Positions 30,001-42,000 of a DNA stretch of 64,000 bases are shown here, one piece after another. Within the stretch, counting starts at the first letter, position 1. Each line of letters opens with the position of its first letter. A program made the position numbers. The stretch lies in assembly GCF_057098645.1 (NCBI RefSeq), contig NZ_CM169472.1; one strand, given 5' to 3'.

Positions 30001-33000
30001 GCTGGTACGCCATCAGCATATTGATTATCTGGTGTGAACGATTGATCAATATAAAGAGGCCCAGCAATAAATAGCCAGACCTCCCGTTAATTATACGTTA
30101 TGCAGCAACGCCTTCCGGTATCAGCGAAGCAATTTGCTTACGCCATTGCGCTTGCTCCTGTTCGCCTTCTGTACGTTGACCATAAAGTTGCGCTATCTGC
30201 GTACCATCATGGGCAAACAATTCCAGACTGGTTACGTAGCCATCGCTGGTCGGTTTACGGGTAACCCAGGCTTCAGCAATGCTCTCTTCTAATAGATGAA
30301 GAGTAAACGTCGGGTTGAAAATATTCAGCCAACCTTTCATTGGCACCACTTTTTCTACCACACCGGTGAAAATCTGTACGCAGCCACGGTTGCCAACAAA
30401 CACCATGATTTCATTACCATCCTGCTTTGCAGATTCAAGAATTTGCGCCAACGCACTGTTGGATACTTTGCAGGCCAAATCGTCCGCCACCAGATTGAAC
30501 GCCTGTTGGCGCGTCAGGTTGTGGCGCTTGAGCAACGTAAAAAACTGATGAACGTCGGTCATCGCCCGCCACTCTTGCTCGACCACAGTGGCATCGGCTC
30601 GCGTTTGAACAACTGGCGCATCAACGGCTTTTAACTCAAGCGGCGTATTCTCATCGGTGATAAACCGTGCCAGAAGCTCACTCCATGCCGCCATATCGGT
30701 ATTGTCGGTGGCATAAACTTTTAGTAATGCATAGCCCTGATGATCAAAGAACTGAATACTCTGGCGTTCGCCATGAGCCGTGTTTTCTTTGATGTGGAAA
30801 ACACTGGCCCATTGATTGAGAAACAGACGTAAATCCAGCGCGCGTGGATTGAGGATCAATCCGGCATGTCCGTTCAAATGCTGGTTTGTGAACGCACCAA
30901 CTTGCTCATGGACTGCATATTCATTACGGCAAATACATTTGGTCTCGCCAACACTTTCGAGCGCCGCCAGAATTTCACGGATATCGCCGCGCATCCGCCA
31001 CGCATCGTGCGTGACGCGTGCAAATGCCAGTTCTGCTTCTCTAATATTCATTAACCCTGCGATGTCACGCGCGTACTTTCCGGGATTTTGTTCTTTTAAC
31101 TCAAGCCAGCGTGTGTAGTGGTTCATTGTCTCTCTTCCTTCCAGATAAATGCCCCGAAATATCGGGGCAGATGATTACCATTGATAACTCACGAAAATTT
31201 TTCCGTTACGACCATCCTGTGGGATGCCTTGCGGCGACCAGTACTCTTTGTCGAAAGCGTTACCCAACACCAAAGTAGTGGTCATACCTTTGAGCGCCTG
31301 TTGTCCTTGATAACTGACGTAGAAATCATTCACGCCATAGCCTGGTTGTTTGCTGTAACTGCTGCTGATATGTGTTGAGCGATCGGCAAACGTACCAACC
31401 CACCCAACAGAGAAGCCACTGTGAGCGATCGGAATATTCAGAGTGCTGGTAACGGTATCCGGGTTAATGCTGGAGATGTATTCGCCGGTATCGGTGTCTT
31501 TGCCGCGGGTACGGTTATAGGCCACATCAAGGCTAAACAGATCAGTGGTATATTTCGTCATCACATCCCAGCCCCAGATTTTGGCGTTCGGGACGTTATA
31601 CGACATAGTCGTCGCCGCCGCGAAATCGACGGTCGTGGAGATGTAATCCTTCGCTTTGGTATCAAAGTAGCTGGCTTTAAATTCCAGAGCATCATTGGAC
31701 AACATCAGGTCATCAAAACGCAGCCCAAAACCGTACTCCTGAGTTTCGTTAGTTTCCGGACGTAAGTTCGGGTTTGGCACCCAATAGTTGGTATAGAAGC
31801 GACCAATCGAGAAGTGCTTAGAATCGTTATACATTTCGCCCATCGTCGGGGCGCGGAATGCCTGGGCATATGAGCCAAATAACATCAGCCAGTTAGTCGG
31901 GTTGATAGTCATCCCCGCACGAGATGACCATTTGTCGGCATCAACATCTTTGTAGCCGTCGCTGCTACCGCGATAACTGTCATAGCGGGTTCCGCCAAGC
32001 AGGGTAATCGGCAGATCGCGTAAGGTGATCTCATCCTGTAGCCAGCCGGAGCTAAAATCGATTTTTGCTTGCGGGAAGCCCGTCGTCGCGCCGCCCGGAT
32101 GTTGTTCCTGACGATAATACTCACCGCCATATGTCAGTAAGTGAGAAGCGAAACTGTCGGCAAAGAGAGTGGAACGGTTCTCCAGCCTGGCTCCTTTTGT
32201 TATCTGTTCACGATACTCGCCGGAACTCTCCGTGTTTTGCGCATTAATACGGACTTCCGACCAATAAATTTTTGCATCTGCATTTAACCAGTCGTTGCCC
32301 TGCGGGGCGAGTTTATAAGAAAGCTGCGCATCGCGTTGAATTGTTGAACGATCAACCATCGGGTTGCTGCTTTCAGAAGCCTCAACGGTCTGCGGATTTT
32401 TTGGTTCACGCGCGTCGTTGTTGTAGTAACGCACTAAACCGCTCAGAGACTGGGCTGAATCAATTTGCCAGGTCCCTTTCGCCAGCATGTTATTAATGGA
32501 CTCGTCATTCGGCGCGGTTTCACCATTGCTCTGGCGTAAATCACCCCGATCGCGACTGGACCAGGCCACACTACCATCCAGATTTTCAGTTCGCCCAAAC
32601 GCGCTCGCGCCTAATCCCAGGCTATGGTCCCCCGTGCCGCCAGTACCAAAGACACGAAAACCACTGCTTTGTCCTTCCTGCAATAAATCTTTTGCATCGA
32701 CCGTATCGTAGGAGATCACTCCACCCAGCGCGCCACTGCCATACAGTAATGCTGAAGGTCCGCGAACAATCTCAACACGCTTGATCAGCGCCGGATCGAG
32801 AAAAGTGCCATTCAGGTGTCCGGTATCCGTTCCCTGACGAATACCATCGACAAGAACCAGCACGCCGCGATGATCATAGCCACGCATATTTACATCCTGA
32901 CCGTTGGTTCGTCCGGTACCATCCAGAGTAATTCCAGGAACATGACGCAGCAGATCGGTGGCTGAAGTAGCCGTTTGATTTTCAGGAGCGGAAGTGTCGA

Positions 33001-39000: not shown

Positions 39001-42000
39001 TACTTGAAGATCCTGCCAACCATTCACCACTGATCGTCCTCGATCATTAAAAGCAACAGGAGTACCGCACTGGTACTCCTGCGAATAAATAACTATACAG
39101 ATTAGCTAATTGAAACGCCTTTCACCCCTGCCATACCTTTTAATAATCGCAACAGATCTTCTATCGACGTTGTGGCATGAAGCTGGATATCAATGGCGAC
39201 CACTTCATGATCTTCATTTTCCTGCAACGAAACTAAATCAGTTTTTATTTTTTGCTGCTTAAACCAGTCGAGCATTGATACCGTATTACCGTTCACTAGT
39301 GTCAGCTGTAAATGGTAATTTTTGTTCATCAGGCGGAAGGTTAATTGATGGAAGACTTCCAGCACCAGCAAGGTCATCACTGAACCATAAATACCTAGTT
39401 CGTACATACCGCTGCCAATAACCATACCAATGGCGGCGGTCACCCAGATATCCGCTGCCGTCGTCAGACCTACAATATTTTGGTTACGAACGAGAATGTT
39501 ACCTGCACCGATAAACCCGACGCCCGTCACCACCTGAGCAGCAATACGGCTGGGGTCCAGTCCGACGTGATCTAAAGACAGCACGTCAGCAAAACCATAT
39601 TTCGAAACAATCATAAACAGGGCGCTTCCCATGCCAATTAATACATGTGTGCGTAACCCTGCTCCTTTGCCGCGCATTTGCCTTTCCATGCCAATAGCGC
39701 CACAGGCAATTGCCGCGAGTATAAGACGTATAATAAATTCTGCTGTCATATAAAAATGCAAAAAGGAGCAGCAAGATGGCTCAACTTGCTACTCCTTTTT
39801 ACTTGTACCTCATTAATTCGGCAAGTCATTAGATGCTTGATTTTTGAAGGTATACAAATTTTTCTGCGGGTTTTTCTTACAGTATTCGATCACTTTAGGA
39901 ATTTGAGTGAGATCGGTTTCATTTAAAGTAACGGTATCGCCACCTTTATATACTGTTTCTTCATGCAGCATCCACCATGCAACCGGGGTCATTGCTTTTG
40001 GATTCAGATCAATAAATTCCTGGCAGGTCATATCTTTAGCGGATTCATTGGCTGCCAGCGCAGATTGTGCGTTCACCAGTGACAAAGCCGCTACAGCGCC
40101 CATAAAAATAAACGCTTTACGGAGAGATGAAATATTCATTTTGTAACCCATTCAATATAGAGATTATATATGAACAGGAGGAATAGCTGCTTTTAAAGAA
40201 GATATTCCGGCCTGTTCAATATGCAAGGAAGTACGATGTAACGCATTCCCGGAATTACATATCTTTCTTAATTTTGTCCCATTCGCCTTTAACTTTATCT
40301 TTAAAGTTGGCTTGTTTATCCTGAGTACAAGCCTGAACGATAGCTGGGGTTACGGTTGCAATACCCTGAACATCTAAAACCGCATCTTCTGGTTTATCTT
40401 TGTTGTTCAGCGCTTCAGCAAAACCAACTGCAGTTGGCTGGAAGGATTCGTCCACAGCCAGGAAATCTTCACAGGTCCAGGAGTTGACCGGTTTTTTGTT
40501 ATCAGCTGCTTTTTGCGCATCCGCTGCATTGCTCACAACTGGCAGAAGAAGCAGACCACCAAGAATAACGCCTAATACTTTTTTCATCGTAATATCCTCA
40601 ACTATAAAGTGAAAGAGCCGTCACGAATCAATTTCGACACTGAGGTTATAACCTAGTTTTCTGTATATGTCATGTTGATGGAAAATATCAAAATAAGATA
40701 TTTTTATTTCAATACAATGAGTTACAGATGCATCAGATACTGCAATTAGGAAATTTTTATTAAATCGACTGCATTCTTAGACGCGTTTTTGGCATAGATT
40801 GATAGCAGGGGATTTTCTTCTTAATTTTATAGGGTGGTTCTATGTTATATATAGATAAGGCAACAATTTTGAAGTTTGATCTGGAGATGCTTAAAAAACA
40901 TCGCAGAGCAATCCAGTTTATTGCCGTGCTGCTGTTTATCGTCGGGTTGCTGTGTATCAGTTTCCCGTTCGTCTCTGGCGATATTTTAAGCACAGTAGTG
41001 GGTGTATTATTAATCTGCTCGGGTATTGCGCTTATTGTCGGGTTATTCAGCAACCGCAGTCATAATTTCTGGCCGGTATTATCCGGTTTCCTCGTCGCAG
41101 TCGCCTATTTATTGATCGGCTATTTCTTCATCCGCGCACCGGAGCTGGGCATTTTTGCCATTGCGGTATTTATTGCCGGTTTGTTCTGTGTTGCAGGGGT
41201 TATTCGCCTGATGAGTTGGTATCGTCAGCGTTCAATGAAAGGCAGCTGGCTACAGCTCGTTATTGGTGTGCTGGATATCGTCATTGCCTGGATATTCCTT
41301 GGTGCAACGCCGATGGTGTCTGTAACGCTGGTTTCCACACTGGTGGGAATTGAACTGATATTTAGCGCCGCCAGCCTGTTCAGCTTCGCCAGTTTGTTCG
41401 TTAAGCAGCAATAATTATCCCGGTTGTCACCAGGATCATAGTCACTTGATGTGACTATGATCCGATTAATACTCTCTCCGCTACGCAGCGTTGTAGATCA
41501 ATTGCGCACTATCATTGAAATAATTACCTGCTAGTGATTATTTCAACCTACTGAATTTCATCTAATTTTTTTCACTCCATGGCAAATTAGCCATTTCAAA
41601 CATTATCTTGGCTGATATTTTCCGTAGTCAGGTTTAATGTTTTAAAAGTGCTGTGGGAAAGTGAACAAAGAGTTCCGTAAGCGTTGATGCTATGGGCGGT
41701 TAAATAAGTAATCCGGGTTCATTTTTTTGCAACTGGCGTTGATTACATTGCATAAATATCCGTGTCTCCAGACGCTATATAAAAACCTGAAGACATGAAT
41801 GCGTTATTTACTCAGGTAATTTCAATGCGTTAAAAGAAAGCTGGCAATCCAATTGCCAGCTTAAGTCGAAACAAGGAGACTCGATATTTAAATCGGATTA
41901 CATTTTAACTTTAGTAATATTCTTCAGAGATCACAAACTGGTTATTGATAACTTATTCTTGGGCAGTAATCCGCAAACGTTAACTTTTTGTTTACTATTT

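Follow-up and report, generated by a model that had tools for sequence, protein, structure and literature searches.

In Escherichia coli K-12 the acid fitness island (AFI) genes dctR and yhiD are neighbours, as a first-pass annotation had pointed out, with a spacer of 41 bp between them in MG1655, and in the stretch of DNA analysed here (64 kb as a whole, hereafter the window) about 9 kb lie between them. This raises the questions of what the intervening DNA encodes and of whether it was gained by pathogenic lineages or represents an older variation of the site. Judging from its sequence, the region at 30038-39101 is the chu/shu cluster of eight genes for haem uptake and degradation (O-island 140, OI-140), at the dctR/yhiD site of the AFI. 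The complete explanation, namely OI-140 at its standard site in a phylogroup E, O145:H28-like host, together with the regulation and the evolution discussed below, is one in which we have very high confidence. Nothing was found to argue against the chu/shu identification, and the weaknesses are confined to the evolutionary part.

Gene content and relatives of the cluster

The first-pass annotation had placed chuS and chuA on the minus strand and chuT, chuW, chuX, chuY, chuU and chuV on the plus strand, and the sizes and strands of the open reading frames (ORFs) agree with this, as does the RefSeq annotation of the identical sequence in strain RM13514, which reads dctR, chuS(-), chuA(-), shuT, hutW, hutX, chuY, shuU and a haem ABC ATPase (+), and yhiD(-). 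All 9,064 bases of 30038-39101 show 100% identity to about 20 O145:H28-type chromosomes among the matches listed. On the minus strand, chuS (30098..31126) is predicted to encode a hematinate-forming haem oxygenase (RefSeq name; 763 bits to PDB 4CDP/1U9T, residues 1-342), and chuA (31175..33157) a TonB-dependent outer-membrane receptor for haem and haemoglobin (TIGR01785, 586.6 bits, cut-off 316.85), which matches the solved chains of PDB 9DIR (1,440 bits) and of ShuA 3FHH (1,426 bits over 632 residues) as well as the ChuA structure 9DHE. On the plus strand follow chuT (shuT, 33839..34753), for a periplasmic haem-binding protein (RefSeq name; 534.9 bits to Shigella dysenteriae ShuT, PDB 2R7A, 256 residues); chuW (hutW, 34773..36110), for a radical-SAM methyltransferase of anaerobic haem degradation (TIGR04107 equivalog, 571.6 bits, cut-off 400); chuX (hutX, 36123..36617), for a cytosolic haem carrier (TIGR04108 equivalog, 209.8 bits, cut-off 110); chuY (36617..37240), for an anaerobilin reductase (RefSeq name; 446 bits to PDB 5FFQ and 442 bits to 5GUY, both ChuY, residues 1-207); chuU (shuU, 37291..38283), for a haem ABC transporter permease (RefSeq name; BtuC/FecCD-type permease homology); and chuV (38280..39050), for the ATPase of that transporter (NF010068 equivalog, 394.7 bits, cut-off 261).

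That the region could hold a non-orthologous haem system merely resembling chu, in which identities to Chu/Shu proteins would fall below the level of orthologs, is extremely improbable. No support for such a system was found, and it is refuted by the DNA identity of all 9,064 bases with O157:H7 (98.7%) and with CFT073 (96.2%), and by near-identical matches to ChuA, ShuA (3FHH), ChuS (4CDP), ShuT (2R7A) and ChuY (5GUY/5FFQ); the ChuA/ShuA, ChuS, ShuT and ChuY structure matches score about 2.1-2.3 bits per residue.

A count of nine genes has been published for this island (PMC3893438), against the eight found here by RefSeq annotation and by ORF and conservation analysis. One ORF considered as a possible ninth gene (about 33525-33606) has 26 codons and a good Shine-Dalgarno sequence; it sits in the least conserved part of the 680-bp spacer between chuA and chuT, and its ATG is replaced by ATA or AAA in Escherichia albertii (L006) and in two other non-coli Escherichia lineages (L005 and L007), so it was rejected as spurious. 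The same poorly conserved stretch contains an unannotated minus-strand ORF of 87 codons (33468-33731).

The arrangement had been described as that known from haem-utilising pathogenic E. coli and S. dysenteriae, and it is indeed published for O145:H28, O157:H7, O55, S. dysenteriae and EAEC 042. OI-140 has been located inside the AFI (PMC3893438, PMC9144400, PMC10540162), in O145:H28 in a position 'analogous to EcO157, EcO55 and S. dysenteriae' (PMC3893438). OI-140 of O157:H7 EDL933 and Sakai has the same eight genes in the same order and orientation at the same dctR (yhiF)/yhiD site, with about 1.3% nucleotide divergence from the window end to end. The shu locus of S. dysenteriae type 1 comprises shuA, shuS, shuTWXY and shuUV, and its ShuA and ShuT chains match ChuA and ChuT of the window. 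In the B2 uropathogens (CFT073, 536, ST131) the alignment is likewise of full length, at 96.2% identity and with the same borders, and the RefSeq name of the binding protein is ChuT, not ShuT. Since the arrangement at dctR/yhiD had already been published, the presence of the chu island inside the AFI is a correct but ordinary finding, which opens no new question.

The source strain had been taken to be unlike K-12 and to belong to a chuA-positive phylogroup, among which G should be included besides B2, D, E and F. This holds, because the window shares 99.96% identity with RM13514 (phylogroup E/ST32), the nearest genome, and contains the Clermont chuA amplicon, a 288-bp product at 32635-32922 given in silico by primers at 32903-32922 (-) and 32635-32654 (+), both with 0 mismatches; the other three markers of that scheme lie outside the window. 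The sequences of these primers, chuA.1b and chuA.2, and the expected size of 288 bp are what we take to be those of Clermont et al. 2013. The differences from RM13514 consist of SNPs, single-base indels and a 782-bp difference in gadA, and the window evidently represents a close relative of RM13514, not that record itself. The value of the locus would be practical only, as a flag for a chuA-positive, phylogroup E, O145:H28/EHEC-like source with an apparently intact haem-piracy system. Haem piracy of this kind is recognised as contributing to virulence and fitness.

Expression signals and proposed function

Expression of the cluster would be driven by two divergent promoters in the 680-bp spacer, each carrying a Fur box through which iron would repress it, and a FourU thermometer would act as an extra gate on the translation of chuA. 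Only two matches to the 19-bp Fur-box consensus within 3 mismatches occur in the 64-kb window, both at the chu promoters, with 0.02 expected by chance. One of them, GATAATGAGAATTATTATC (33447..33465, 2 mismatches), overlaps a promoter-like site for chuA (minus strand, -35 and -10 elements at 33485-33457), and is invariant as a block in an alignment of four Escherichia lineages. The other, GATAATCATGATCATTCTC (33797..33815, 3 mismatches), is placed at the presumed start of the chuT transcript and begins 42 nt before the start codon of chuT (ATG at 33839); the position of this candidate box agrees with the transcription start site published for shuT, immediately downstream of which a Fur site is found (PMC5458455). 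The predicted thermometer covers the ribosome-binding site in the shuA/chuA 5'-UTR (33155..33186, minus strand; Rfam RF02597, 60.1 bits, gathering score 58, full model 1-32). This block is also invariant across the four lineages in the alignment, and the shuA/chuA FourU thermometer has been described experimentally (PMC3660397). The window thus resembles the S. dysenteriae shu locus in carrying the shuA thermometer and in having the chuT Fur box placed as published for shuT. Growth on haemin, Fur control and temperature control would be expected of this locus from its identity to those that have been studied.

The steps of the chu/shu mechanism are established family knowledge, and the parts are assigned here by sequence identity. 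Haem would cross the outer membrane via ChuA at the expense of TonB energy, would be carried through the periplasm by ChuT, and would be pumped into the cytoplasm by ChuU and ChuV. Iron would then be released aerobically by ChuS, or anaerobically by ChuW with ChuX and ChuY, through radical-SAM ring opening to anaerobilin and its subsequent reduction.

Three hairpins that could act as terminators, all on the minus strand, accompany these genes. The first lies 3' of chuS (30054..30085) and is followed by TTTATATT; as a putative chuS terminator it would operate on the minus strand, where RNAfold gives -20.5 kcal/mol, vs -11.3 kcal/mol on the plus strand, and where its non-Watson-Crick positions read as G-U pairs, the plus strand having A-C in their place. 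This hairpin is kept in E. albertii, L005 and L007. A second, terminator-like hairpin is found between chuA and chuS (31150..31169), with a stem of 8 pairs, 6 of them G-C, followed by TTTATCTGGA. The third, at the right border (39056..39082), lies inside island-specific DNA and has 10-11 pairs, including a perfect 10-bp core (39057-39066/39072-39081), with a 5-nt loop and -21.8 kcal/mol; its stem is invariant in L005 and L007. A perfect bidirectional stem-loop had been annotated here at 39056-39081. The perfect stem is present, but 'bidirectional' is unsupported in the canonical sense, in which a G+C-rich hairpin has an A-tract before it and a T-tract after it and so ends in a U-tract on either strand, because a T-tract, TGCTTTTAAT, is found on the minus strand only, the sequence after the stem on the plus strand being CGAATAAATA. 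The hairpin has the form of a putative intrinsic terminator for yhiD.

Borders of the region

The left flank gene, dctR (yhiF; 29507..30037, plus strand), is named after RefSeq, which annotates it in the identical sequence of RM13514, and shows 99.2% nucleotide identity to K-12 dctR, and the right one, yhiD (39102..39749, minus strand), is supported by NF007431 (401.7 bits, cut-off 214) and by RefSeq. In a local alignment with the K-12 junction, homology stops at 30038 and resumes at 39097, which sets the breakpoints at 30038/30039 and 39096/39097, so that the first-pass limits of the island, 30038-39101, were good to within 1-5 bp. Between the breakpoints, 9,058 bp of island-specific DNA (30039..39096) stand in place of a 35-bp K-12-type spacer, and the event is thus best described as the replacement of this spacer, not as a pure insertion. 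The borders are short, as had been stated: 60 bp on the left, where dctR stops at 30037 and the stop codon of chuS starts at 30098, and 51 bp on the right (39051-39101).

The published wording, in which the cluster is 'inserted' relative to K-12, would favour a recent horizontal gain, that is, a pathogenicity island acquired by EHEC, UPEC and S. dysenteriae on a K-12-like background. The classical marks of such an island (a tRNA, integrase, IS element or direct repeats, and a deviating base composition) are, however, absent from the locus. No tRNA occurs in the 64-kb window and the annotation within 12 kb shows neither an integrase nor a transposase, in line with the first-pass reading; the two borders have no direct or inverted repeat in common beyond chance, the longest shared word being 8 nt, with shuffles commonly giving 7-8. 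The GC content of the island (50.4%) equals that of the backbone (50.1% in the window outside the AFI), whereas the AFI flanks have 37.7% and 39.7%: the compositionally atypical part is the AT-rich acid fitness island, not the chu island.

Occupied and empty sites in Escherichia

Among 5,426 complete E. coli genomes the chu site is occupied in 2,238 and empty in 3,179. The large number of genomes that miss the cluster could speak for its recent gain, as could its relatives in other Enterobacterales. Clusters of the hutWXZ/hmuTUV type in Kluyvera, Citrobacter amalonaticus, Raoultella, Cedecea and Providencia are collinear with chuT-W-X-Y-U-V at 63-88% amino-acid identity, but the receptor upstream of the module, and on its strand, has no more than 24-33% identity to ChuA, no ChuS orthologue is found nearby (except one of 65% in Mangrovibacter), and the flanks of the acid fitness island are missing. 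Since chuTWXYUV occurs elsewhere without ChuA/ChuS orthologues and AFI flanks, the cluster must have moved between genomes at some time. A recent date for this movement is nevertheless quite improbable, being largely refuted by the E. albertii locus: chu lies there at the same breakpoints with the border hairpins kept, as it also does in L005 and L007. In these three lineages the divergence of chu is about equal to that of the flanks (87-95% identity to the window for chu genes, 84-98% for flank genes). All sampled occupied genomes, moreover, align end to end with the island, and they do so identically in phylogroups E, F and B2. We infer from these comparisons that the chu insertion is an old allele, which E. 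albertii and other Escherichia have in common with E. coli and whose age is at least that of the E. coli/E. albertii split, and that it was not gained by pathogenic lineages as such; it is a mildly useful addition that 'inserted in pathogens' is a K-12-centred wording.

In another reading chu was present in the ancestor of E. coli and the K-12-type empty site of A/B1/C-type strains is derived, by deletion or by replacement with an empty allele from another lineage. The occupied sites of E. albertii, L005 and L007 are compatible with such a secondary loss, and independent decay does occur, as in strain HH97, where only the chuY'-chuU-chuV end is left. In addition, six genomes carrying the same Slp, YhiD and HdeB accessions as the phylogroup E strain are empty at the site and show a diverged spacer there, which suggests allele replacement. 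On the other hand, E. fergusonii (L035) is likewise empty, as is a lineage about 14% diverged (L038-L040), in which the 42-bp spacer of L039 aligns with that of K-12, so that the spacer is orthologous and conserved in length. When the 35 bp of the empty allele were considered as a remnant of chu, their best local alignment to the island scored 22, within the range of shuffled spacers (mean 20.5, maximum 27). Being unlike the island and orthologous elsewhere, the K-12 spacer is a genuine intergenic region of the ancestral type and not the scar of a simple deletion, and the only kind of loss that fits is recombination with a pre-existing empty allele. We consider secondary loss rather unlikely.

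We favour, with moderate confidence, an old cross-species polymorphism of occupied and empty sites, arising from one entry into an already existing AT-rich AFI that brought a new terminator for yhiD, with the alleles reshuffled by homologous recombination ever since. The site is occupied in E. albertii, L005, L007 and the B2, F and E strains of E. coli; the empty state, with an orthologous spacer of roughly 40 bp, is that of the L038-L040 lineage and of most other E. coli, and E. fergusonii is empty too. In such a history one illegitimate recombination event, involving no site-specific machinery, would have put the cluster in the place of about 35 bp of the ancestral dctR-yhiD spacer, around or before the time when E. 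coli, E. albertii and other Escherichia lineages separated. Both alleles would have coexisted since then, exchangeable by homologous recombination through the conserved flanks. The locus need not have had a single vertical history. In L007 the chu genes (90.5-95% identity to the window; chuS, 89%) are mostly closer to the window than the flank genes (85.5-93%), and in L005 the reverse is true, a mild incongruence which shows that some recombination between lineages has occurred.

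The chu locus and its carrier strain

An ORF scan of the window showed that the region 30098-39050 is filled by reading frames of the expected sizes and strands, and in RM13514, an O145:H28 genome, the annotation of this DNA reads dctR, chuS and chuA (minus strand), shuT, hutW (chuW), hutX (chuX), chuY, shuU and a haem ABC ATPase gene (chuV) (plus strand), and yhiD (minus strand), past which hdeB, hdeA, hdeD, gadE, mdtEF, gadW, gadX and gadA are annotated. In K-12 MG1655, dctR adjoins yhiD across a 41-bp spacer. When 30038-39101 was compared by megablast with the complete genomes of E. 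coli (5,426), 2,238 proved to carry the segment, the best matches, all of the O145:H28 type, being 100% identical across all 9,064 bases, and a contiguous dctR-yhiD junction was found in 3,179 genomes of the same set. The placement of the chu genes between two genes that are adjacent in K-12, as made in the first-pass annotation, is therefore borne out by the ORFs, by the identical O145:H28 DNA and by both annotations. In E. coli HH97 (H90, NZ_CP116409.1) chu has been partly lost in an independent event, and no more than the final 24% of the island is left, with part of chuY plus chuU and chuV.

The identification of the proteins with Chu/Shu agrees with the DNA alignments and with the family and structure matches, in none of which do identities fall below ortholog level. 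ChuA (TIGR01785, 586.6 bits, cut-off 316.85), ChuW (TIGR04107, 571.6 bits, cut-off 400), ChuX (TIGR04108, 209.8 bits, cut-off 110) and ChuV (NF010068, 394.7 bits, cut-off 261) all score above the cut-offs of curated NCBIfam models, as does YhiD with its own model. Matches to solved structures are near residue-for-residue for ChuA (9DIR and 9DHE, 1,440 bits; S. dysenteriae ShuA 3FHH, 1,426 bits), ChuS (4CDP and 1U9T, 763 bits), ShuT (2R7A, 535 bits) and ChuY (5FFQ, 446 bits; 5GUY, 442 bits). Over its whole length the segment has 98.7% DNA identity to that of O157:H7, 96.7% to that of ST648 and 96.2% to those of CFT073, 536, ST131 and APEC O1, each alignment beginning at base 1 or 2 and running to the end of the segment. 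Judged by sequence, these are orthologous Chu/Shu proteins, and the parts of the haem pathway can be provisionally assigned by identity to the established system. ChuA brings haem through the outer membrane with TonB energy, ChuT, ChuU and ChuV deliver it into the cytoplasm, and ChuS degrades it aerobically. ChuW is a class C radical-SAM methyltransferase that opens the ring anaerobically to yield anaerobilin, ChuY reduces the ChuW product, and ChuX acts as a carrier (PMC10114669, PMC10404700, PMC6449446).

Identity to RM13514 over the whole window is 99.96%. The Clermont chuA primers match the window perfectly in silico and span 288 bp, the expected product size. RM13514 has been typed as O145:H28, phylogroup E, ST32 (PMC9144400, Table 1). 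On these grounds the source strain, already proposed to be unlike K-12 and to belong to a chuA-positive phylogroup, is both, and its phylogroup can be specified as E. The arrangement is already known and has been published for this very lineage: O-island 140 has been described as inserted in the acid fitness island (AFI) of O145:H28, as in O157, O55 and S. dysenteriae (PMC3893438), and the AFI of all O145:H28 strains is ca. 22 kb long, like that of EDL933, owing to chuSA and chuTWXYU (PMC9144400). The same arrangement occurs in Sakai, EAEC 042 and an OgGp9:H18 strain (PMC10540162), and cryptic clades also carry chuA, on which the Clermont clade PCR is based (PMC13118800).

Borders and predicted regulatory elements

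In a local alignment with the K-12 junction, homology stops at 30038, one base beyond the dctR stop codon, and restarts at 39097, so that the island-specific DNA comprises 30039-39096 (9,058 bp) and takes the place of 35 bp specific to the empty allele. This 35-bp piece was considered as island-derived and rejected, its similarity to the island being no greater than that of shuffled versions, which argues for a replacement of 35 bp and not a clean insertion. The spacers measure 60 bp (left) and 51 bp (right), and the borders share no repeats beyond chance. The 64-kb window is devoid of tRNA genes, and the RM13514 annotation lists neither an integrase nor a transposase within 12 kb of the island, in accordance with the earlier statement that no integrase, tRNA or IS remnant is visible.

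A perfect, bidirectional stem-loop had been described at the right border. The perfect stem is present (39057-39066 paired with 39072-39081, 10 pairs, 5-nt loop), but its bidirectional character in the canonical sense is unsupported, since a T-tract follows on the minus strand only (TGCTTTTAAT) and the plus strand continues with CGAATAAATA. For that reason the hairpin, of minus-strand terminator form, looks like the intrinsic terminator of yhiD, situated inside island-specific DNA. The left spacer contains a minus-strand hairpin at ca. 30054-30085 (-20.5 kcal/mol, versus -11.3 on the plus strand), a difference that by our own reading reflects positions that form G-U wobbles on the minus strand and would become A-C on the plus strand. 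This hairpin is followed by TTTATATT and is thus a likely chuS terminator. Both hairpins are kept in other Escherichia lineages.

The 680-bp chuA-chuT spacer contains the only two matches to the 19-bp Fur consensus (up to three mismatches) in the whole 64-kb window, where 0.02 would be expected by chance. Predicted Fur box 1 (33447-33465) overlaps a promoter-like site of chuA, and predicted Fur box 2 (33797-33815) starts 42 nt upstream of the chuT ATG. The transcription start site of S. dysenteriae shuT has been published, with a Fur site immediately downstream (PMC5458455), and both positions agree with Fur box 2. A minus-strand FourU thermometer of shuA/chuA, characterised previously (PMC3660397), was matched at 33155-33186 above the Rfam gathering score, and further post-transcriptional control by CyaR has been described (PMC9002310). 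Four Escherichia lineages show no variation in the Fur-box and thermometer blocks, whereas conservation is poor in mid-spacer. A 26-codon ORF located there was rejected as a gene, its start codon missing in other lineages. Expression would be confined to low iron, through Fur, and to 37 °C, through the thermometer.

Age and spread of the occupied and empty alleles

A ChuW scan of one genome per species showed that the site is also occupied by chu in E. albertii NBRC 107761 and in two other species representatives labelled E. coli (loci L005 and L007); in all three the borders are conserved, the chu genes being 87-95% and the flanking genes 84-98% identical to those of the window. The site is empty in E. 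fergusonii ATCC 35469 and also in a divergent Escherichia lineage (L038-L040), whose 42-bp spacer can be aligned with that of K-12. The presence of both states in E. coli and in other Escherichia implies that both alleles are probably old and extend across species. The spacer of K-12 would then represent an intergenic region of ancestral type instead of the scar of a deletion, and chu an ancient allele, not a pathogen-specific one. The divergence figures of L005 and L007 are mildly incongruent, a sign that alleles have to some extent been exchanged through homologous recombination. A second type of empty spacer, strongly diverged, is present in 6 of the 5,426 genomes, among them E. coli N96 (L034 3150-3191); over 36 bp it differs at ca. 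10 positions, with flank identity at 96-99%. N96 and the O145:H28 strain have identical protein accessions for Slp, YhiD and HdeB, which suggests that chu was replaced by an imported empty allele.

A collinear chuTWXYUV module with 63-88% amino-acid identity occurs in Kluyvera, Citrobacter amalonaticus, Raoultella, Cedecea, Providencia and others, but in modules of this type the preceding receptor is only 24-33% identical to ChuA and no ChuS orthologue lies nearby, so that the Escherichia cluster looks like a mosaic. The GC content of the island (50.4%) equals that of the backbone (50.1%), and that of the surrounding AFI is 38-40%; the compositionally odd part is the AFI, not the island. The first-pass interpretation is supported with small corrections, namely the 35-bp replacement, the minus-strand yhiD terminator, the ordinary GC and the ancient allele.

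Regarding the flanks, E. albertii NBRC 107761 lacks yhiD, and directly after chuV (L006 14278-14334) carries the hairpin that in E. coli sits between yhiD and hdeB. E. fergusonii (CU928158.2 3096745-3113308) has a complete slp-dctR-yhiD-hdeBA-hdeD-gadE-mdtEF block with only 68-83% nucleotide identity to that of E. coli, and its upstream neighbours differ, with Pfam UxuA, mannitol dehydrogenase and GntR in place of ars/yhiS. The history of the AFI itself is apparently deep or separate.

Other features of the window

Relative to RM13514, gadA (50027-50640) appears to lack ca. 782 bp internally, the two sides overlapping by 6 bp at the junction (50250-50255). This gap would frameshift the gene, and the best complete-genome matches all span the stretch only as two pieces; either a genuine deletion or an error of assembly caused by gadA/gadB paralogy may account for it. 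Compared with K-12, the window lacks arsR and the greater part of arsB (at 26201-26204), ca. 1.7 kb of the K-12 locus (L002 491-2176) being without counterpart and only arsC being left, as is likewise annotated in RM13514; arsRBC is intact in the divergent Escherichia lineage (L039). The gene yhiS (27317-28540), split by IS5 in K-12, is here an intact 407-codon ORF in a very AT-rich region (30-38% GC). Rfam matches above the gathering score were obtained for two AgrB-family antisense RNAs next to dinQ (25771-25855 and 26006-26089), ES205 downstream of gadE (42858-42929) and GadY between gadX and gadW (48708-48821). A hicA/hicB type II toxin-antitoxin pair (2874-3505) is located between a sugar-utilisation cluster and yhhJ.
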